64,000 nt of DNA from an uncultured Chloroflexia bacterium. Its GTDB lineage: Bacteria > Chloroflexota > Dehalococcoidia > DSTF01 > JALHUB01. Shown in pieces: positions 11,793 to 59,468 of this stretch (the stretch's first letter is position 1; every line of letters starts with the position of its first letter). The DNA lies in contig OY970386.1 of the NCBI GenBank assembly GCA_963719465.1, positions 1,369,471 to 1,433,470 on the forward strand. Reading direction: 5' to 3'. A program made the translations under genes and the position numbers. The notes beneath the pieces were generated by a model that was not told the DNA's origin, made no database searches, and was given only the letters and a program-made list of their open reading frames with translations.

Positions 11793-12211
11793 TCGCGAGT
11801 CTAACCGCTCCTGATGTTAGGCTCAACCCGTGGGCTCTATCCATAATACCACGGAGGGCGCCGGTTGCGGGGAGCTCCGCCACTTCTCGTCGAAAACCCG
11901 GTGGCGAAGGGCTGGAGATGAGCTTGGCGGACGTGGCGAAGGCGCTGGATGACTGAAGAATCGACAAGAATAGCAGAAGACGGCCGGGGGAGCCTGGCCG
12001 CCTTCCGCCAATCCAGACCGCCTCTGGCACCCTCAAACCACAGACGGCTTTCAAATATTGGGTAGGAGGTTCGCCTGTATTGTCTCTCTCAGATGTTGTG
12101 CGCCTATAGCTGCCAAGTTAACAATCGGTAAAACGTGCAAAATCTGAACGACTTTCTTGACCCTCCTTTCCGGCCGCCCCTTGTGATTCAGCCGGCTCGG
12201 TTGATCGCCCT

Positions 12212-13238
12212 TGTAGGGTTTCAGGAGATGTGAGACAGAAGGGAGGTGAATAACGTCGGGCCTGGGCTGTAGGCTAACGGAAAACGAAGCCCAATAACCT
12301 ACAGGAGGCCCGACATGCACAAAGCTCGCACACCCTGGCCCATCCAGACAAGAGCCGCCTACATCGCTGCGTTCGAGGAGGCGCGTCGGCAGTATCCCAG
12401 GCTCAGCGCCCGCATCTTTTGCCAGGCGGGAGAGGTGCCCCATTCGACCTTCTCTCGCTGGTGGGCGGCCTGGCGACGCCACGACAGGAGAGCGCTATCA
12501 GACCGCTCCCGCAGGCCTCACCGCTCGCCTACGGCCCTTTCAGGGCATGTTCTAGACATCATCCGCGGCGCCCATCGTAAATTCGGCTTCGGAGTAAAGA
12601 GGCTCCACGCGTATCTGACAAAGGCCGGGCTGATTACCTGCAGCGTTTCCAGTGTCTACAGAGTTCTCCGTCGCGCCGGCGCCCTCCTTGCCTGTCCCCG
12701 TAAACCTAAGCGTCTCTGGCTGCACTACGCCAAAGCTTCCCCCGGTGATCGGGCTCAGATGGACCTGCTCTATCTGCCGGAGGGTCGCTACCAACTGACC
12801 CTGGTCGACGATTGCAGCCGCGTTCTTGCCGCAACGGTTCTTTCCAGGCGCACCTGCGCCGCTGTCTGCAAAGCCCTGCCGTGCCTCCTGGAGACCATCC
12901 CGTTCGCAATTCGCTGCCTCCAGACTGATAACGGCCCTGAATTCTCAGGCGACCTCACTGCCCTTCTGAGGCGAAGAGGCATTCGCCACGTCCGGATCAG
13001 ACCCAGGACGCCTCATCTCAATGGCAAGGTGGAGAGAGTGCAGAGGACGATGCGAGAGGAGTTCTGGGATGGCGTTCTGGCGGGAACGGTCTTGGAGTGG
13101 GAGAAGGGGTTGCAGGCGTATGTGCGCTTCTACAACAAGAAACGGCTGCACAGTGCTCTTGGCTACAGCGCGCCGCTCGTGTACGCTCAGGAGCGTCTAC
13201 CTCAGGCCCGGATCTACCACATCTCCTGAAACCCTACA
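12212..13238 (+). mobile_element. IS481-family insertion sequence, copy 1 (1027 bp)
   Basis: 21-bp terminal inverted repeats TGTAGGGTTTCAGGAGATGTG (12212-12232; reverse complement at 13218-13238), flanked by a 15-16 bp direct repeat TCGGTTGATCGCCCT(T) at 12197-12211 and 13239-13254. Confidence 0.9.
12315..13229 (+). CDS. IS481-family transposase (DDE integrase core)
   Basis: 304 aa; identical to the 41.3-kb copy through residue ~300 (the last residues differ after a 1-nt difference); N-terminal HTH plus an rve-like core. Confidence 0.9.
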   Translation: MHKARTPWPIQTRAAYIAAFEEARRQYPRLSARIFCQAGEVPHSTFSRWWAAWRRHDRRALSDRSRRPHRSPTALSGHVLDIIRGAHRKFGFGVKRLHAYLTKAGLITCSVSSVYRVLRRAGALLACPRKPKRLWLHYAKASPGDRAQMDLLYLPEGRYQLTLVDDCSRVLAATVLSRRTCAAVCKALPCLLETIPFAIRCLQTDNGPEFSGDLTALLRRRGIRHVRIRPRTPHLNGKVERVQRTMREEFWDGVLAGTVLEWEKGLQAYVRFYNKKRLHSALGYSAPLVYAQERLPQARIYHIS

Positions 13239-24762: not shown

Positions 24763-25146
24763 TTACTTCTTGGCGACGGAGCGTCGCTTGCCGGCCACGG
24801 TGCGTCGCGCGCCCCGTTTGGTGCGGGCGTTGGTGCGCGTCCGCTGGCCGTGCACGGGCAGGCCGCGACGGTGCCGGATGCCGCGATAGCAGTTTATCTC
24901 GATCAGGTGCTGGACGTTCTGGCGGACCTCGCGCCGCAGGTCGCCTTCGACTACGTATTCGCGGTCGATGACCTCGCGGATGCGGTTGATCTCATCGTCG
25001 GTCAGGTCGCGGACGCGCACCTTGCCGTCGATCTGCGTCTGCCCCAGGATCTTCTGGGAGCGCGTTCGGCCGATGCCGTAGATGTAGCCGAGGGCCACGC
25101 CGACCTGTTTGTCGTTGGGTATGTCGACTCCGGCGATACGTGCCAT
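24763..25146 (-). CDS. rpsM: 30S ribosomal protein S13
   Basis: 127 aa, canonical ([10 protein letters not shown]). Confidence 0.95.
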
Positions 25147-25159
25147 AATTCCTCCCGGG

Positions 25160-25273
25160 TTAGCCCTGCCGCTGCTTGTGCTTGGGGTTGGGGCAGATCA
25201 CCATAACGACGCCGTGGCGCCGGACGATCCGGCACTTTTCGCAGCGTACTTTTACTGATGCTCGAACTTTCAT
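25160..25273 (-). CDS. rpmJ: 50S ribosomal protein L36
   Basis: 37 aa [37 protein letters not shown], found inside the 65-aa track ORF. Confidence 0.9.
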
Positions 25274-25301
25274 TATATCCTCTTTTGCCGCCTGATTCGA
25301 C

Positions 25302-25520
25302 TCACTTGAATCGGTAGGTGATGCGGCCGCGCGACAGATCGTAGGGAGAGAGCTCAACGAGGACGCGGTCTCCCGGCAGAATTCGGATGAAGTGCAGCCT
25401 TATCTTTCCGGAGACGTGGGCGAGGACCTTGTGTCCATTCGCCAGGTCTACGCGGAACATCGCATTCGGCAAGGCTTCCCTCACCACCCCTTCTACTTCG
25501 ATCGTCTCTTTCTTGGGCAT
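25302..25520 (-). CDS. infA: translation initiation factor IF-1
   Basis: 72 aa, canonical S1-like IF-1. Confidence 0.95.
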
Positions 25521-25548
25521 AACCTCCTCAGACTTATTGCTTACCGTT

Positions 25549-26299
25549 CTAAGGCAGCGTCAGTATCTCCGCCTTGCCGTCGGTTACGGCGATTGTGTGC
25601 TCGAAATGGGCGGAGAGGCTGTGGTCGAGCGTGCTGACCGTCCAGCCGTCCTCGTGCCTTTTCGTGCGCCAGCCGCCGGCGTTGACCATCGGCTCGATGG
25701 CGAGCACCATGCCCTTTCTCAGGATGGGCCCCCGGTCCGCCGGCCCGAAGTTCGGGATTCTGCGGGTCTTCGTGCATCGCGCGGCCCACGCCGTGTCCGA
25801 CGTACTCGCGCACCACTGAGAACCCGGCCGCTTCGACTTCCGTCTGAACGGCATGCGAGACGGCGCCGAGCGGGCTCCCGGCCCTGGCTGCCTCTATTCC
25901 CTTGTAAAGCGCCCTCTCCGTCGTGCGGAGGAGGCGTTCGGTCTCCGCGCTTATGCGGCCGACGCCGACGGTTATCGCCGCGTCGCCGACGAACCCGTTA
26001 TAGGTCGCGCCGAGGTCTATGCTCAGCACGTCGCCGTCCTTTAGCGCCCGGTCGCCCGGAATGCCGTGGACGACTTCGTCGTTTGCCGAAAGGCAGACGC
26101 TGGCCGGATAGCCCATGTAGCCGAGGAAAGTCGGCTTTACGCCCCGGCCGGCGAACTCCTTTCGTACTATCGCATCCAGTTGTTTGCCCGTGACCCCCGG
26201 TTTCGCCTCCCCGGCCAGTACCTGCAGCACCTGGCCGACGGTGCGACCGGCTTCACGGATGGTCGCTATCTCTTCTTCCGATTTTATTATAATGGGCAT
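25549..26299 (-). CDS. map: type I methionine aminopeptidase, with an apparent +1 frameshift near 25757-25760
   Basis: The N-terminal ~175 aa (through [14 protein letters not shown]) read in the frame of track ORF 25541-26299. The conserved C-terminus ([30 protein letters not shown]...[11 protein letters not shown]) reads in the frame of ORF 25549-25854. Deleting one A from minus-strand CAGAATCCC rejoins them as ...EDPQIPNFGP... Confidence 0.85.
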
Positions 26300-30433: not shown

Positions 30434-30832
30434 CTACCATACGTAGCAAATCACTTCGCCGCCGATGTGGCGATGCCATGCCTGCTGACCGGTCATGACG
30501 CCCTGCGGAGTCGACAGTATCGCGATTCCGAGACCGCCGTAGACGCGTGGTATCTCCCTGTTCTGCACGTATACGCGCAGGCCGGGCTTGCTCACGCGCT
30601 GAAGCCCGGTCAGGACGGGCTCCTTCTTCCCCGTGTAGGCGAGGCGAATGCGAAGGAAGCGCCGCTGCCCGTCTGCGATCTCTTCGAAGTCCTTGACGAA
30701 GCCCTCGTCTTTAAGGACGCGCGCTATAGAGATCTTCATCTTGGAGCTTGGCAGCTTCAACTCGTCGTGCCTGGCCATGATGGCATTGCGAATGCGTGTG
30801 AGCATATCGGCGATGGGATCGGTCATGTTCAT
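30434..30832 (-). CDS. rpsH: 30S ribosomal protein S8
   Basis: Canonical S8 from [17 protein letters not shown]; the track ORF extends 14 codons further upstream. Confidence 0.9.
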
Positions 30833-30892
30833 GCCTTCGCCCCCTCGGGAAAGTAGTTCCGCTGGCCTTTGCACGAAGTCACCTTCTCTCTC

Positions 30893-31078
30893 CTACCAGC
30901 TCGACTTCTTGACGCCGGGCAACTGGCCCTCTAAGGCCAGGTGGCGGAAACAGATGCGGCACATGCCGAACATACGCATATAGGCCCGCGGCCTGCCGCA
31001 GACGCGACAGCGGTTCTTCTGACGCGTCGAGTACTTAGGCGGCCGTCGGGAGGCAACTATCTTCGAAGTTTTAGCCAC
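30893..31078 (-). CDS. rpsN: 30S ribosomal protein S14, type Z (zinc-binding)
   Basis: 61 aa with a CRVCG...CRICFR Cys4 motif. Confidence 0.95.
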
Positions 31079-31101
31079 TACCTGCTCCTCTAACTCGCAT
31101 C

Positions 31102-31650
31102 TCAGTTATGGCTGAAAGGCATTCCCAGCAACTGCAAGAGGCGCTTGCCTTCCTCGTCGCTGCGGGCGGTCGTTACGATGATGATTTGCATGCCGCGAAT
31201 TCGGTCTATCTTGTCGAACTCGATCTCCGGGAAGATCAACTGCTCCTTCAGACCAAGGCTGTAGTTCCCACGCCCGTCGAACGCCTTAGTCGACACGCCG
31301 TGGAAGTCCCGGATACGCGGCAAGGCGGCGTTGACCAGACGGTCATAGAACTCCCACATGCGGTCGCCGCGGACGGTAACGCTGAGGCCGATCGGGTTGC
31401 CCTGGCGCACCTTGAAGTTGGCGATGGAGCGCTTGGCACGATTAGCGATCGGCTTTTGGCCGGTGATCGTGGCGATGTCGGCGCTGGCGGCGTCCATGGC
31501 GCGCGGATTCTGGAGCGCCTCGCCGAGACCGATGTTGACGACGATCTTCTCCAGCCGTGGCACCTCCATGACACCGCTGTAGCTGAACTCCTTGGTCAGT
31601 GCCGGCGTCACTTCGTGGCGGTAGAATTCCTTCAATCTCGGCGGCAACAA
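31102..31650 (-). CDS. rplE: 50S ribosomal protein L5
   Basis: 182 aa, canonical. Confidence 0.95.
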
Positions 31651-40667: not shown

Positions 40668-41093
40668 CTACTTCGACTTGGCGCCGGCTTTGCGCGTCCC
40701 GTACTTGCTGCGACCACGATTGCGGCCGTCGACGCCCTGCGCGTCAAGGGCGCCGCGAATGACGTGATAGCGCACACCCGGCAGGTCTTTGACGCGTCCG
40801 CCGCGGATGAGCACGACCGAGTGCTCCTGGAGGCTGTGCCCTTCGCCGGGAATGTACGCCGTCACCTCGATGCCGTTCGTGAGCCGCACGCGGGCAATCT
40901 TCCGCAGAGCGGAATTCGGCTTCTTCGGCGTCATGGTGCGTACCTGAGTGCAGACGCCGCGCTTTTGCGGCGAGCCTTCGCCGCGCTCGGTCCGGTTCTT
41001 AAGGGCGTTGTAGGTAAAACGCAGAGCGGGCGCCTTCGTCTTCTTGACGAGCTTCTTGCGTCCTTTGCGCACTAATTGGCTTATGGTGGGCAC
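40668..41093 (-). CDS. rpsL: 30S ribosomal protein S12 (GTG start)
   Basis: Canonical S12 from (V)[14 protein letters not shown]; the upstream part of track ORF 40668-41198 is leader, not coding. Confidence 0.9.
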
Positions 41094-41261
41094 GCGCTTA
41101 CCTCTCTCAGGAATCTTGGACTGGCCTGCTCTCAGACAACAAAAAGGCCGAAAACCTGATTCTGAGCCAGTACAGCGTGAAGCGCCGTGGCGCTTCACTA
41201 TCGCTGACCGTAGTCAATTCGAGGTCTTTCGACCTTGCTTTGCTCTGTCGCTCAGCGCCAA

Positions 41262-41298
41262 ACACATACTTTACGTGATATGGCGCAAGAGTGTCAAG
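41262..41298 (-). promoter_or_regulatory. str-operon promoter candidate: consensus -35 TTGACA (plus 41292-41297) - 18 nt - TAAAGT (-10, plus 41268-41273), ~170-nt leader to rpsL
   Basis: Hexamers read on the minus strand; the -35 lies inside the IS copy-2 target duplication. Confidence 0.4.
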
Positions 41299-42224
41299 CA
41301 GTGTAGGGTTTCAGGAGATGTGGTAATCCGGGCCTGAGGTAGACGCTCCTGAGCGTACACGAGCGGCGCGCTGTAGCCAAGAGCACTGTGCAGCCGTTTC
41401 TTGTTGTAGAAGCGCACATACGCCTGCAACCCCTTCTCCCACTCCAAGACCGTTCCCGCCAGAACGCCATCCCAGAACTCCTCTCGCATCGTCCTCTGCA
41501 CTCTCTCCACCTTGCCATTGAGATGAGGCGTCCTGGGTCTGATCCGGACGTGGCGAATGCCTCTTCGCCTCAGAAGGGCAGTGAGGTCGCCTGAGAATTC
41601 AGGGCCGTTATCAGTCTGGAGGCAGCGAATTGCGAACGGGATGGTCTCCAGGAGGCACGGCAGGGCTTTGCAGACAGCGGCGCAGGTGCGCCTGGAAAGA
41701 ACCGTTGCGGCAAGAACGCGGCTGCAATCGTCGACCAGGGTCAGTTGGTAGCGACCCTCCGGCAGATAGAGCAGGTCCATCTGAGCCCGATCACCGGGGG
41801 AAGCTTTGGCGTAGTGCAGCCAGAGACGCTTAGGTTTACGGGGACAGGCAAGGAGGGCGCCGGCGCGACGGAGAACTCTGTAGACACTGGAAACGCTGCA
41901 GGTAATCAGCCCGGCCTTTGTCAGATACGCGTGGAGCCTCTTTACTCCGAAGCCGAATTTACGATGGGCGCCGCGGATGATGTCTAGAACATGCCCTGAA
42001 AGGGCCGTAGGCGAGCGGTGAGGCCTGCGGGAGCGGTCTGATAGCGCTCTCCTGTCGTGGCGTCGCCAGGCCGCCCACCAGCGAGAGAAGGTCGAATGGG
42101 GCACCTCTCCCGCCTGGCAAAAGATGCGGGCGCTGAGCCTGGGATACTGCCGACGCGCCTCCTCGAACGCAGCGATGTAGGCGGCTCTTGTCTGGATGGG
42201 CCAGGGTGTGCGAGCTTTGTGCAT
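41271..42224 (-). CDS. IS481-family transposase, copy 2; a 1-nt difference near the 3' end lets the ORF read through the right IR into flanking DNA
   Basis: 317 aa, identical to copy 1 through ...ERLPQARI, then diverges. Copy 2 has GGATTACC where copy 1 has GGATCTACC. Confidence 0.85.
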   Translation of the reverse strand: MHKARTPWPIQTRAAYIAAFEEARRQYPRLSARIFCQAGEVPHSTFSRWWAAWRRHDRRALSDRSRRPHRSPTALSGHVLDIIRGAHRKFGFGVKRLHAYLTKAGLITCSVSSVYRVLRRAGALLACPRKPKRLWLHYAKASPGDRAQMDLLYLPEGRYQLTLVDDCSRVLAATVLSRRTCAAVCKALPCLLETIPFAIRCLQTDNGPEFSGDLTALLRRRGIRHVRIRPRTPHLNGKVERVQRTMREEFWDGVLAGTVLEWEKGLQAYVRFYNKKRLHSALGYSAPLVYAQERLPQARITTSPETLHCLTLLRHIT

Positions 42225-49301: not shown

Positions 49302-50591
49302 ATGCCGGTAATAGTAGTCATCGGCGGCCAGTGGGGCGACGAAGGCAAGGGCAGGACTATCGACCTGCTGGCGCAGAACGCGAGCATCGTCGCCCGCTAT
49401 TCGGCCGGGAACAACGCCGGGCACACCGTGGTCAACGACAAGGGCAAGTTCAGCCTGCACATCGTGCCAGCGGGCATCTTCTACGGCGACAAGACCTGCA
49501 TCATCGGCAACGGCGTCGTCGTCGACCCAGCGGTGCTGCTGGAGGAGATCGAAGGGTTGCAGGCGAAGGGGGTCGGCGTCAAGAACCTGTACGTGAGCGA
49601 CCGCTGCCACATCGTCATGCCCTACCACATTCTCATCGATAAGGCGGACGAGGAGCTGCGCGGGCCGGCGGCCATCGGCACCACCTTCCGCGGCGTAGGG
49701 CCGGCGTTCGTCGACAAGGTGGGACGCATCGGCGTGCGGATGGTCGACCTCATCGACGCCGACACCTTCCGCGAGCGGCTTTCGCTGGTGCTGCCGTACA
49801 AGAACGCCGTCCTGCAGAAGCTGTACGGCCTCCAGCCGCTGACCTTTGACGAGGTATACGAGCCGTACTGCGGCTTCGGCCGGCGGCTGGCGCCGTTCGT
49901 GGCGGACACGGCCGACATGGTGCAGGAGGCGCTGGCACGCGGCGAGTCGATCCTTCTGGAGGGCGCGCAGGGCTCGCTGCTGGACCTGGACTCGGGGACG
50001 TACGAGTACGTGACGTCGTCGGTGCCATCGTCCACGGCGGCGGGGGCGGGGCTGGGCATCGGGCTGGGGCCGACGCAGATAACGCGGGTGGTCGCGGTGT
50101 ACAAGGCGTACCAGACGCGCGTCGGGAACGGGCCGATGCCGACGGAGCTGAAGGGCGAGCTCGGCGACGAGCTGCGGGAGAAGGGGCAGGAGTACGGCGC
50201 AACCACCGGCCGGCCACGTCGCTGCGGCTGGTTCGACGCGGTGGCGGCGCGCTACACGGCGCGGCTGAACGGGCTATCCGGCGCGGTGATCACTCGCCTA
50301 GACGTGCTGGACACGTTCGCCAGTGTGAAGGTGTGCACGGCGTACCAGGCCGACGGGGTGCCGGTGGACCGCTTCCCGGCAAGCCTGGGCCGGCTGGCCT
50401 GCTGTGAGCCGATCTTCGAGGAGCTGCCGGGCTGGCAGGAGCCGACGACGCACGTCCGGCGCTTCGAGGACTTGCCGAGGCATGCGCGGGAGTACGTGAA
50501 GCGGCTGGAGCAGCTAATCGGGGTGCCGGTGGCGCTGGTGTCGGTGGGGCCGGAGCGGGACCAGGCGATCATCGTGAAGCCGATCCTATAG
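49302..50591 (+). CDS. purA: adenylosuccinate synthetase
   Basis: Canonical PurA from MPVIVVIGGQWGDEGKGR; the track ORF starts 9 codons earlier. Confidence 0.95.
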   Translation: MPVIVVIGGQWGDEGKGRTIDLLAQNASIVARYSAGNNAGHTVVNDKGKFSLHIVPAGIFYGDKTCIIGNGVVVDPAVLLEEIEGLQAKGVGVKNLYVSDRCHIVMPYHILIDKADEELRGPAAIGTTFRGVGPAFVDKVGRIGVRMVDLIDADTFRERLSLVLPYKNAVLQKLYGLQPLTFDEVYEPYCGFGRRLAPFVADTADMVQEALARGESILLEGAQGSLLDLDSGTYEYVTSSVPSSTAAGAGLGIGLGPTQITRVVAVYKAYQTRVGNGPMPTELKGELGDELREKGQEYGATTGRPRRCGWFDAVAARYTARLNGLSGAVITRLDVLDTFASVKVCTAYQADGVPVDRFPASLGRLACCEPIFEELPGWQEPTTHVRRFEDLPRHAREYVKRLEQLIGVPVALVSVGPERDQAIIVKPIL

Positions 50592-50849
50592 GGCGCGGCT
50601 CTGATTGTGTTTGTTTTAAAAAAGATCGCGTCTTTCGAATGTGTTAGCGGCGCGTTTCTTCAGTTGTTTTTCGAAAGGCGTCTTTCCGGCGGGTCGCCCG
50701 TGGGGTGGGTCCGCTCCGCACGGTAGATGTTCCCCTAAGCGGCGGCGGATTGCAAGGGGAAGGTGGCACTTCGGTTGGGGGGAAAGCGGCCGTTCATTCA
50801 TCGGCAGGTCAGCGCTGGGACGAGTTCGATGTCTGGCTTAGGCGTTCGC

Positions 50850-51296
50850 TTATTCCTGTTGGGGAAGAGGCCTCCTCATGAAACGGACGGCCCGTCCGTA
50901 GCCGTCGCACTCGACGTCAGCAAGCGTTGAGTGCTCAATGTCCTCCCAGTCGCCGAGTTTGCTTGTCCATCGACCCGTATTCAGTTGCCGAGCGACATGC
51001 GTTGGGCCATCGTCATTGGCAAAGATAGCGAGCTTTTCGTAGCCGGTCTCAAGTTCGGGACTTGGGCAAAGGACAAAACCCAGAGATTCGAACCCCTCAA
51101 CGACCGCGTCGAGGCTGCCATCTCGCCGAGGCGTGGGCCAGTAGTATTCAGCGAGGCGAGAGTCGGGCCACCACCGAACCTGATCGTCACGAGCCGCCCA
51201 CGCAGCGCAGTTGTAATCAGAGCTCTCTAAGCTCGTGACCGTGTGGTTAGTGGCGTTCAGATTACGGAATGTAGCGCGATGTCGCCACGGCAACAC
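50850..51296 (-). CDS. hypothetical protein (low-GC islet, gene 3 of a 3-gene operon)
   Basis: 148-aa ORF; Trp/Tyr-rich (NCAAWAARDDQVRWWPDSRLAEYYWP); no family recognised. Confidence 0.5.
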   Translation of the reverse strand: MLPWRHRATFRNLNATNHTVTSLESSDYNCAAWAARDDQVRWWPDSRLAEYYWPTPRRDGSLDAVVEGFESLGFVLCPSPELETGYEKLAIFANDDGPTHVARQLNTGRWTSKLGDWEDIEHSTLADVECDGYGRAVRFMRRPLPQQE

Positions 51297-51780
51297 GAGG
51301 GTTCACTCCCGTCGTCAAAGCGTAGCGGTCGGCGTCGACGTAACCATGGTCGCGCCCCCATTTTAGCCAAATGTCCCTTGTCTCACGGGAAGTATGCCGC
51401 ACACCTGGTGGGACCGGAGACTCTCCCGTTATTGCGTGTAGCGCCCAATACCACTGTGCGCCGGTCTGCCGCAGGTCTTCTAGGATAAACGGAACAACGC
51501 TTGGCCCCATGCCGATGATTCGCTGGTATGCCGGATGCATTGCTATCTGCGATGGAGAGGAGAGGTGACCCGTCGCTTCGCGCCACTCTTTCGCGAGTTC
51601 CACGAACCGCTGCCTTGCATCGGCGCGACCGACCGATGAGACAGGCGAAGTAATACGGGACAGCCTCTCAAATAGCGACGTTGGCGCCGATGTTCCCGTG
51701 AGCGGCGGGACATAACAGGGCCGGGGGACTGTTACTGTACCAGCAAACGGCGTTGCAGGTAGGCGATAATCAGTAACCAT
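51262..51780 (-). CDS. hypothetical protein (low-GC islet, gene 2)
   Basis: 172-aa ORF; ATG preceded by GAGGAGAG, 11 nt after the upstream stop; no family recognised. Confidence 0.55.
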   Translation of the reverse strand: MVTDYRLPATPFAGTVTVPRPCYVPPLTGTSAPTSLFERLSRITSPVSSVGRADARQRFVELAKEWREATGHLSSPSQIAMHPAYQRIIGMGPSVVPFILEDLRQTGAQWYWALHAITGESPVPPGVRHTSRETRDIWLKWGRDHGYVDADRYALTTGVNPRVAVATSRYIP

Positions 51781-51791
51781 CGTTCTCTCCT

Positions 51792-52148
51792 CTACGTCTG
51801 TGGTCGTGCCTGCGCTTGCATCTGTGCAATCACGGTTTGTAGTTCGTTAATCCTGTCGGTAAGCCAATCTCTGAGAACGACCGCTGCTCCTGGATTAAGA
51901 ATAACGTCAGCTTCAATCTCTCTGATTATGAATCCAGGATCATCCGTCTGAGTCTCCTGAGGCACGCCCTGCTTGTCCACTGAGATGGTCGTCCCGTCCG
52001 GCAAAGCCCTATGTTCACTGAAAAGTGCCATGTGAATGTTTCCCTGGAACGTCAAGCTACCCCATGCACCGTCAACATGGATAACCCGACAGAGTTTACT
52101 GCGCTTAAATCGGGTCTTTAGTTCTGGTACGTTTTGCGGCTCATTCAT
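51792..52148 (-). CDS. hypothetical protein (low-GC islet, gene 1); tentatively DUF3467-like
   Basis: 118 aa from MNEPQ, with a strong AAGGAG RBS 8 nt upstream; the track start at 52223 is an over-extension. The DUF3467 call is from memory and tentative. Confidence 0.5.
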   Translation of the reverse strand: MNEPQNVPELKTRFKRSKLCRVIHVDGAWGSLTFQGNIHMALFSEHRALPDGTTISVDKQGVPQETQTDDPGFIIREIEADVILNPGAAVVLRDWLTDRINELQTVIAQMQAQARPQT

Positions 52149-52191
52149 ACTTAGTTCTCCTTCAACGGCGACCACGCGTGCGGCGTGGCAG

Positions 52192-52430
52192 TCAAGGCGC
52201 AGCCTCCACCCCGATGAGTTCATTATAGGTTATGCAACGACCAACTACCGACTCTACCACCTTCGACATTCTGTCGCCATCGGAATCCTGCCGAGTGTTA
52301 TATCGGGAAACCTGCTCATCGACATAGCGGATCAAGTGGAAGGGTTCGACGCTGACGTAGGTTCCCTTGAGTGTCCGCTTCATTAGACTCCAGAAGTTCT
52401 CCAGCCCGTTAGTGTGAACCTTGCCGCGAG
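52192..52430 (-). pseudogene. 3'-terminal remnant of an IS1595-family (ISXO2-like) transposase gene
   Basis: Reads ...GKVHTNGLENFWSLMKRTLKGTYVSVEPFHLIRYVDEQVSRYNTRQ..., the conserved C-terminal signature of IS1595 transposases. No DDE core is present upstream, where the methyltransferase gene ends at 52443. Confidence 0.6.
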
Positions 52431-52442
52431 GGAGCCGGGGGG

Positions 52443-58692: not shown

Positions 58693-59019
58693 CTAGCTGA
58701 TGGCGCTCTCGATATTCTTCTTGAGCTCCGTCTTGGGACGAAAGCCGATGACCTGGCTGACTGGCTTGCCGGCCTTGAAGATGATGAGCGTCGGGATGCT
58801 GCGGATGCCGTAGTTCATGGCCGTCGAGGGGCTCTCGTCGGTGTTGAGCTTGACGAAGTCCATCTTGCCGGCGAAGTCGCCTGCCAGCTCTTCGACCAGC
58901 GGCGATACCATTCGGCAGGGGCCGCACCAGGGCGCCCAGAAATCCACGAGCACGGGCAGGGTGGAGTTCAGCACCTCTTTGCTGAAGGTCGCGTCCGTGA
59001 CATCTCTTACGCTTGCCAT
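58693..59019 (-). CDS. trxA: thioredoxin
   Basis: 108 aa with the WCGPC active site. Confidence 0.95.
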   Translation of the reverse strand: MASVRDVTDATFSKEVLNSTLPVLVDFWAPWCGPCRMVSPLVEELAGDFAGKMDFVKLNTDESPSTAMNYGIRSIPTLIIFKAGKPVSQVIGFRPKTELKKNIESAIS

Positions 59020-59044
59020 CTTCTCCTCCTCAATCTCAAGAAGC

Positions 59045-59099
59045 TTGACAATCTCGCTTGTCTTCGCGATAATTGTGACATACCCCCACGGGGTATGTC
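59045..59099 (+). promoter_or_regulatory. csoR promoter (TTGACA 59045-59050, 17-nt spacer, GATAAT 59068-59073) with a CsoR-type operator palindrome GACATACCCC-cac-GGGGTATGTC (59077-59099) at +1
   Basis: Perfect 10-bp inverted repeat with the ATACCC...GGGTAT core characteristic of CsoR operators; on the opposite strand it embeds a TTGACA facing trxA. Confidence 0.5.
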
Positions 59100-59147
59100 A
59101 AGGTAGCAAGTGCCAACGAGTTCAGTATAAGGCCTGGGAAACACAAT

Positions 59148-59468
59148 ATGAACACGAAGCTTCATCCGCCCGAGACGCTGGTGCGGTTGCGACGTCTTGA
59201 AGGGCAAATCAGGGGCATTCAGCGGATGCTGGAGGAAGACCGAGGCTGCGAGCAGCTTCTGACGCAGTTGATGGCGGTCCGCGCCGGCATTGACCAGGTC
59301 GGCCTGATCCTGCTGGAGACGCACATCGAGAAGTGCCTGCTGACGGACCTGGAGGCAACGGACCCGGAACGCGTGCGGGAGCTGCGCGAGACGCTGAAGA
59401 TGTGGGCGCGCTTTGGGCTGGTTCCGGGCGCGGCGCTCCCCTGGCTGGAAGAGACGTCGGAGCAGTAG
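59148..59468 (+). CDS. csoR: CsoR/RcnR-family metal-sensing transcriptional repressor
   Basis: 106 aa; conserved RGCEQL...H...C ligand pattern of the CsoR (DUF156) family. Confidence 0.8.
   Translation: MNTKLHPPETLVRLRRLEGQIRGIQRMLEEDRGCEQLLTQLMAVRAGIDQVGLILLETHIEKCLLTDLEATDPERVRELRETLKMWARFGLVPGAALPWLEETSEQ

Follow-up and report, generated by a model that had tools for sequence, protein, structure and literature searches.

A DUF7689 protein of predicted papain-like fold in a candidate tripartite toxin-antitoxin-like operon carried by the probable remnant of an IS1595-family transporter insertion sequence

Type II toxin-antitoxin systems with an antitoxin of the ribbon-helix-helix (RHH) type include ParDE, RelBE and CcdAB, and tripartite versions are known in omega-epsilon-zeta, PaaR-PaaA-ParE and the toxin-antitoxin-chaperone (TAC) systems with their SecB-like chaperone. 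To our knowledge, a papain-fold Cys/His enzyme is not a fold found among the classical type II toxins. Papain-like protease toxins with immunity proteins are also among the closest comparisons, and include Cpe1-Cpi1 (PMC12136450), StbD-CT/CdiI (PDB 8ssk, 8ssm) and Tae/Tai. Cpe1 is a papain-like cysteine protease that acts as an intracellular antibacterial toxin on GyrB and ParE, and a small immunity protein neutralises it (PMC12136450). The locus considered here is a low-GC islet between a methyltransferase gene and purA in a 64,000-nucleotide stretch of DNA (the window) from contig OY970386.1 of an uncultured Dehalococcoidia bacterium. It has an operon of three small genes, termed A, B and C, next to the 3′ relic of an IS1595-family transposase gene. 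On balance the three genes probably constitute a tripartite type II toxin-antitoxin-like module, in which C would be the toxin, B its neutraliser and A an accessory component. The earlier note on this DNA, made from the letters alone, had guessed at a toxin/immunity or small defence module, and the comparative evidence fits that guess.

The pairing of B with C is the firmest part of the case. Scanning one genome per species for DUF7689, the family of C, gave at least 592 loci, in Cyanobacteria, Chloroflexota, Planctomycetota, Acidobacteriota, Nitrospirota, Proteobacteria and others, and 80 of these were retrieved. In 79 of the 80 an open reading frame (ORF) of the B family is directly upstream of the DUF7689 gene, on the same strand and abutting or overlapping it. 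B is also directly upstream in 31 of 33 loci on predicted viral or prophage contigs. Two seeming exceptions in public gene tables turned out to be intact ORFs that had been left uncalled, so annotation-based counts under-report the pair. (Intact B and/or C ORFs are absent from the gene tables of two public metagenome-assembled genomes (MAGs), at L153:4354-5338 and L158:1912-2337.) The distance matrices of B and C correlate over 78 loci with a Mantel r of 0.83, a value that none of 999 permutations reached. That the two form an obligate pair is very nearly certain. The pair is the conserved core, and A is a clade-specific add-on.

As in a type II toxin-antitoxin system, there are two small adjacent genes with constant co-occurrence. 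The likeness extends to their being co-directional and overlapping with the putative neutraliser first, to their sporadic and mobile distribution, to their co-divergence and to the N-terminal RHH domain of some relatives of B. The differences are that the B domain belongs to no described family and that most B proteins are without a DNA-binding domain.

The earlier note could not confidently name a family for any of the three proteins. However, the product of the third gene clearly belongs to Pfam PF24738 (DUF7689), with E 3.3e-32 and 112.1 bits against a cut-off of 22.6, over positions 2-118 of 118. Its AlphaFold model, built with 36 homologues, has a pLDDT of 94.6 and a papain-like fold. Cys30, the WTSKLG motif (110-115), Asp119 and His122 are invariant in all 78 divergent homologues compared, and His100 is kept in 77 of them. 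(The homologue of L080 has tyrosine in place of His100.) In the model Cys30 opens a helix (30-34), His100 lies in a strand (97-104) and Asp119 and His122 are in a later one (119-122). The predicted Cys/His/Asp-His arrangement, as read from these secondary-structure positions, is papain-like. C thus has in its model the features of clan CA (papain-like): the fold, a conserved Cys at a helix N-terminus, a His on a strand and a third polar residue on a later one.

B consists of a Pro/Thr/Ser-rich N-terminal extension (residues ~1-55) followed by a conserved domain of ~100 amino acids (aa; ~56-150). At least 429 homologues were found, and the conserved domain is always at the C-terminus of its ORF. 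No match to B was found in Pfam, NCBIfam, PADLOC or PHROGs, and profile searches of A and B against the sequences in PDB gave nothing below E 0.39. To the eye, the repeat pattern IIGMG..AVP.IL..L....HWFWAL.AITG recalls HEAT-like helical repeats. Two of 120 B homologues have an N-terminal RHH_5 domain and a third weakly matches RHH_1. After the gene of one RHH-bearing protein, P0230, comes a DUF7689 gene that overlaps it. These relatives lend independent support to B being an antitoxin, though window B itself has no RHH match in Pfam. The B proteins linked to A have a low-complexity N-terminal extension of 36-89 residues. (Another homologue, P0126, has two B domains in tandem.)

The model of A (pLDDT 88.6) has five beta-strands and then a C-terminal helix of ~29 residues. 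The earlier note had thought the first gene DUF3467-like. The window protein has no Pfam match, with PF11950 (DUF3467) not reached at E≤1, but some weak support comes from its relatives. DUF3467 is the only Pfam family that these match repeatedly, always sub-threshold (15 of 145 representatives, best E 0.0011; 2 of 24 in the closest set, again sub-threshold), and it is plausible from these comparisons that A is a distant relative. The A family is large, with 2,842 clusters at 50% identity in an exhaustive profile search at E≤1e-3. Foldseek of the model against viral structures gave a single, uncharacterised match, and a pattern scan of viral contigs for the A family gave none that was confirmed; three A-B-C trios surfaced there through the scan for C.

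The company that A keeps is informative about the roles of B and C. Of 31 metagenomic A loci retrieved, 17 are A-B(-C) and nearly all the other 14 continue with a different two-gene cassette. In L099/L100, L103/L104 and L107, A is followed by a protein of ~100-118 aa and then by a PemK/MazF toxin, with Pfam E values of 2.4e-8 and 1.4e-17 for such third genes. Since a PemK/MazF toxin is third in these sister operons, C is the positional equivalent of a toxin and B of an antitoxin. In L088, L093, L094 and L105 A is followed by proteins of ~145 aa and ~200 aa, and in L112 and L113 by one of ~171 aa and a small ORF (150 aa in L112, 93 aa in L113). These cassettes may be further, undescribed toxin-antitoxin pairs. 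As the A family also heads such other cassettes, A is not specific to B-C. Where A does precede B the junction is tight, with a spacing of -8 to +11 nts in 16 of 17 measurable loci. Conversely, other genes can hold A's position. A TIGR04255-family gene (E ~1e-41) is directly upstream of B-C in 9 of the 80 genome loci, and a family of ~240-270 aa with no Pfam or NCBIfam match is upstream in six. (Examples of the first are L014:3951-4718, L021:6791-7531 and L079:6733-7521, with six more loci, and of the second L010:6707-7471, L042:6790-7500 and L060:6591-7403, with three more. At L057:7126-7944 the second family appears to form an in-frame fusion with B.)

In the toxin-antitoxin-like module proposed, C would be a small cytoplasmic papain-like enzyme, a toxin that cleaves or modifies an essential protein or metabolite. 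B, the upstream overlapping partner, would use its conserved domain of ~100 aa to bind C directly and so neutralise it. A would be an accessory third component, either a regulator of the operon or an adaptor for the disordered N-terminus of the antitoxin. Any specific role for A is tentative. The first of these is suggested by its position as first gene and by analogy with omega and PaaR, which it shares that position with. The module resembles the known tripartite systems in that the operon encodes a third small protein, and TAC in particular in that one accessory family is combined with unrelated toxin-antitoxin pairs, as SecB-like chaperones are. The difference is that A has no resemblance to SecB, RHH or helix-turn-helix (HTH) proteins and no recognised DNA-binding domain, so that the SecB-like chaperone fold of TAC is missing.

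Several results weigh against this interpretation. A is present in a minority of B-C loci (1 of the 80 from GTDB, 3 of the 33 viral ones and the window's own clade), and its predicted fold has no functional match. Most B proteins, as noted, have no recognisable DNA-binding domain. The Pfam and NCBIfam matches of the islet proteins are without toxin-antitoxin annotation, and A, B, C and the transposase relic match no PADLOC-DB 2.0 defence model at E≤1. A tblastn search of C against curated plasmid and phage collections found no match, and a literature search found no paper mentioning DUF7689. In several Nostocales (L009, L024, L029, L031, L051, L056, L066) B-C is just downstream of psaA/psaB, and such a conserved position is less typical of a selfish module. 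Searches of A, B and C against NCBIfam and PHROGs gave nothing useful. DUF7689, DUF3467 and TIGR04255 are all uncharacterised, so membership of them gives no function.

The alternative that survives best, possible but unlikely, is an anti-phage system of the abortive-infection or guard type, with B-C as its effector end and not as a simple addiction module. B would tether a latent protease, C, to a sensor, which would be encoded upstream (A, the TIGR04255 protein or the other ~250-aa protein) or be a restriction-modification (RM) protein fused to B, and interference with the sensor would release C. The restriction enzyme EcoprrI holds PrrC by a resembling logic. In three unrelated bacteria (L033:4983-7967, L070:2096-4723, L074:4588-7971) the B domain makes up the C-terminus of proteins of ~900-1,100 aa with HSDR_N, N6_Mtase and Eco57I-type domains, which by their domain content have the architecture of type IIG RM enzymes, and DUF7689 comes directly after each. 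A type IIG gene (L158:2649-4898) also follows a stand-alone B-C pair in L158, and DNA methyltransferases are near B-C in ~4 of 41 sampled loci. The exchange of upstream partners described above, and the presence of B-C on 33 predicted viral or prophage contigs, point the same way. Neighbourhoods are otherwise heterogeneous, however, and across the 41 loci there is no clear enrichment typical of a defence island, only the scattered methyltransferases and no PADLOC system. The want of any PADLOC match to A, B or C also counts against a guard function, and most B-C pairs are alone, with a B of ~100-150 aa and no obvious sensor. This alternative overlaps the toxin-antitoxin interpretation and does not exclude it.

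The operon itself is as the earlier note described it: three minus-strand genes of the sizes given in the table, a gap of 11 nts between the A stop and the B start, and an overlap of 35 nts between B and C. The start of gene A agrees in position with that of its homologues. Shine-Dalgarno sequences, noted before for the first two genes, are present as GGAG 8 nts 5′ of the A start and 6 nts 5′ of the B start, and there is besides a GGGAG 9 nts before the start of C. From ORFs, spacing and ribosome-binding sites, A-B-C is a translationally coupled operon.

Table. Coordinates of the islet and its features (positions in the window)
Feature	Position	Strand	Remarks
Gene A	51792-52148	-	118 aa from internal ATG; proposed accessory third component
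Gene B	51262-51780	-	172 aa; proposed antitoxin
Gene C	50850-51296	-	148 aa, GTG start; DUF7689; proposed toxin
IS1595-family transposase 3′ relic	52192-52427	-	~72 codons + stop; non-functional
Block shared with L085, L001, L084 and L086	50812-52308	-	1,497 bp, ~82% nt identity (blastn)
Foreign islet	50771-52427	none	1,657 bp; between host methyltransferase gene and purA 3′ intergenic region
Host intergenic DNA 3′ of purA	50592-50770		homologous to relative L115; outside islet

A second copy of the operon allows selection on it to be gauged. The block shared with L085-type loci comprises the last 38 codons of the transposase, A, B, C and a further 38 bp, and in those loci it sits elsewhere, between a Smr/MSSS-domain gene and a LigB/AMMECR1 gene. 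A comparison of the window copy with that of L085 gives genes A, B and C dN/dS values of 0.34, 0.38 and 0.20 respectively. The tail of the transposase gene that both copies share has a value of ~1.4, from only 10 substitutions (8 non-synonymous, 2 synonymous). These ratios indicate that the three genes are maintained under purifying selection, and that the relic is not and is decaying neutrally. The C-terminal tail of B was tried as a chaperone-addiction extension and dropped, being unconserved between the window and L085 and lying within the overlap with C. As there is thus no sign of a chaperone-addiction tail, this is a further difference from TAC. (In L001 (1935-2111) and in L155 (1654-1860) there is a small ORF, of 58-68 aa, in overlap with the 3′ end of C. 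The window does not have it, since homology to the L085-type element ends 38 bp past the C stop.)

The earlier note took the transposase relic as a marker of the islet edge. Its identification as IS1595-family has stood, but instead of an edge marker it is the leftover of a vehicle, since A and/or B-C are found as cargo in intact IS1595 transporter insertion sequences (ISs) elsewhere. 'Transporter ISs', which carry passenger genes, have been recognised as a class, reportedly confined to the IS1595 and IS66 families (bioRxiv 10.1101/2021.05.26.445724). The relic matches positions 111-153 of 153 (the last 43) of Pfam DDE_Tnp_IS1595 with E 3.6e-10, matches NCBIfam IS1595 below cut-off, and aligns by tblastn at 58% identity with residues 238-309 of the L100 transposase (315 aa). 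In L100 that transposase, with a Zn_ribbon_IS1595 domain, is followed by A, a gene X, PemK/MazF and one more gene. Inverted repeats that begin GGTAATAATATA and an 8-bp target duplication, CAAATTAG, flank the element. (The extra gene, of 181 aa at L100:2535-3077 on the minus strand, runs the opposite way and lies after the MazF gene and before the right inverted repeat.) In L005, from Acidocella, the transposase gene is followed by B-C between repeats of the same kind, with the 8-bp duplication AAGTCAGT. In L070, from a member of the Verrucomicrobiia, it is followed by the fusion of type IIG RM protein and B and then by C, with the duplication CTTTATAG. These three are like described IS1595 transporter ISs in having one transposase, inverted repeats, 8-bp duplications and passenger genes. 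The core of the right repeat, CA[AG][CG]TATATT[AG]TTACC, is also found downstream of C in L085 and L110. In the window copy, by contrast, some three quarters of the transposase gene are missing, the zinc ribbon part included, as are both inverted repeats and the target duplication. A search for terminal inverted repeats in the window found none even with 6 mismatches allowed. (A repeated GGGGAGTGCAGAG motif in the flanks of relatives was dropped from consideration, the window being without it.) With the transposase cut to its last ~72 codons and both inverted repeats gone, the element is immobile. The islet is very probably the remnant of an IS1595-family transporter IS whose cargo has survived.

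The transposase association raises a second, distinctly unlikely alternative, that A stands outside the B-C module and instead serves the IS1595-type element as an accessory gene, for instance as a transposition regulator or a DNA-binding factor. A is directly 3′ of the transposase gene in four independent elements (L100, L107, L110 and the lineage of the window and L085). However, the intact transporter ISs of L005 and L070 are without A, and A-led operons occur with no nearby transposase on the long contigs L089, L101, L104 and L105. That a two-gene cassette follows A in nearly all of the 31 loci, and the tightness of the A-B junction, likewise argue for A belonging with its cassette in the proposed toxin-antitoxin-like module.

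By sequence comparison the islet is horizontally acquired, as the earlier note had it, though the foreign DNA is less extensive than the interval then assigned to it (50592-52442). The comparison that sets its limits is with L115, a Dehalococcoidia-labelled MAG whose methyltransferase is at least 90% identical to that of the window. It is collinear with the window on both flanks at ~87% nt identity (54500->52428 and 50770->48719). At the site of the islet it has an unrelated insert of 2.9 kb (L115:5838-8739) that encodes a 589-aa DUF4062 + GNAT protein. Yet another unrelated sequence comes directly after the methyltransferase stop in L116-L119. (A partial reverse ORF of that sequence looks IS110-like by eye.) On these alignments the intergenic site between the methyltransferase gene and purA is a variable spot in Dehalococcoidia relatives. 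That relatives carry other DNA at this site rules out the housekeeping synteny that would have spoken against an acquired islet. The biosynthetic neighbourhood, to which weight had also been given, plays no part in the explanation.

Composition agrees. The GC content of 50592-52442 is 56.6% against a mean of 64.9% for the window, the second lowest among 1,243 sliding segments of the same size, and the sole lower one overlaps it; the islet is the lowest-GC stretch of the window. The drop reported in the earlier note is thus real, but its figure of 50-55% holds only for the part with A and the relic. GC at third codon positions (GC3) is 0.51 in gene A, 0.58 in B, 0.62 in C and 0.65 in the relic, against 0.85-0.92 in the host genes purM, purF, purA, the methyltransferase gene, dapA, asd and an ABC gene. 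The compositional deviation, a point that the note had named as a check, is strong, and with the differing content at a syntenic site it marks the islet as foreign. No match was found in the islet by Rfam and tRNA scans or by a sigma-70 promoter scan. A terminator-like hairpin is at 50589-50603 on the + strand. (Other 500-bp stretches of the window with GC below 58% are at ~11800-12500, 25100-25700, 30700-31300, 40900-41600 and 58700-59200.)

Should C not be toxic, it could be an accessory enzyme (a peptidase, amidase or acyltransferase) with B as its regulatory or substrate-presenting subunit, and the pair a mobile accessory function. The very wide spread over at least 592 species-level genomes and the fixed position by psaA/psaB in several Nostocales would suit this quite improbable alternative. 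What speaks for the toxin-antitoxin interpretation instead is the sporadic distribution, with B-C as the sole cargo of the transporter IS L005, and a gene order, overlap and size as in type II pairs. The RHH fusions to B, C's occupancy of the PemK/MazF position in A-led operons, and a composition foreign to the host add to this. That B-C is an interbacterial polymorphic toxin/immunity pair is very improbable: two secreted effectors, Tse1 and Tae3, are indeed structural neighbours of C, as is a CdiA-CT peptidase, but among the homologues listed C is a stand-alone protein of ~145-155 aa with no N-terminal trafficking or secretion domain, its putative neutraliser is encoded upstream and not downstream, and secretion-system genes are not recurrent among 140 sampled neighbour proteins.

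The toxin-antitoxin proposal can be taken a step further, in a speculative form to which only a low likelihood is given. The B domain would be a portable tether that keeps a DUF7689 protease toxin latent, whether it is stand-alone, RHH-bearing or RM-fused, and in the last case an attack on the RM enzyme would unleash the protease. The A family would be a promiscuous third component, docking on the disordered N-termini of unrelated antitoxins (B, that of MazF and those of at least two further cassettes) much as SecB-like chaperones do in TAC, with another fold and position. Such cassettes would have their dedicated shuttle in IS1595 transporter ISs.

Toxin-antitoxin modules on mobile elements, whether type II or tripartite, are already known as a kind of system. 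New, as far as established, are the pairing of DUF7689 with the B domain and the presence of a papain-fold enzyme where such operons have their toxin. The same applies to a DUF3467-like A family as an upstream component common to several cassette types, and to IS1595 transporter ISs with such cargo, RM fusions included. In the literature no description was found of cargo of toxin-antitoxin or RM type in IS1595 transporter ISs.

If the proposal is right, it would provide a function for DUF7689, present in at least 592 species-level genomes of many phyla, and for its unannotated partner family. A papain-fold enzyme would join the toxins of intracellular toxin-antitoxin systems, and the large DUF3467-like family would be an accessory that serves several toxin-antitoxin types. 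Through the fusions of RM proteins to B, restriction enzymes would be linked to a latent protease in a concrete and testable way. The ferrying of toxin-antitoxin and RM cargo by IS1595 transporter ISs bears on how such modules spread, including into the streamlined genomes of Dehalococcoidia.

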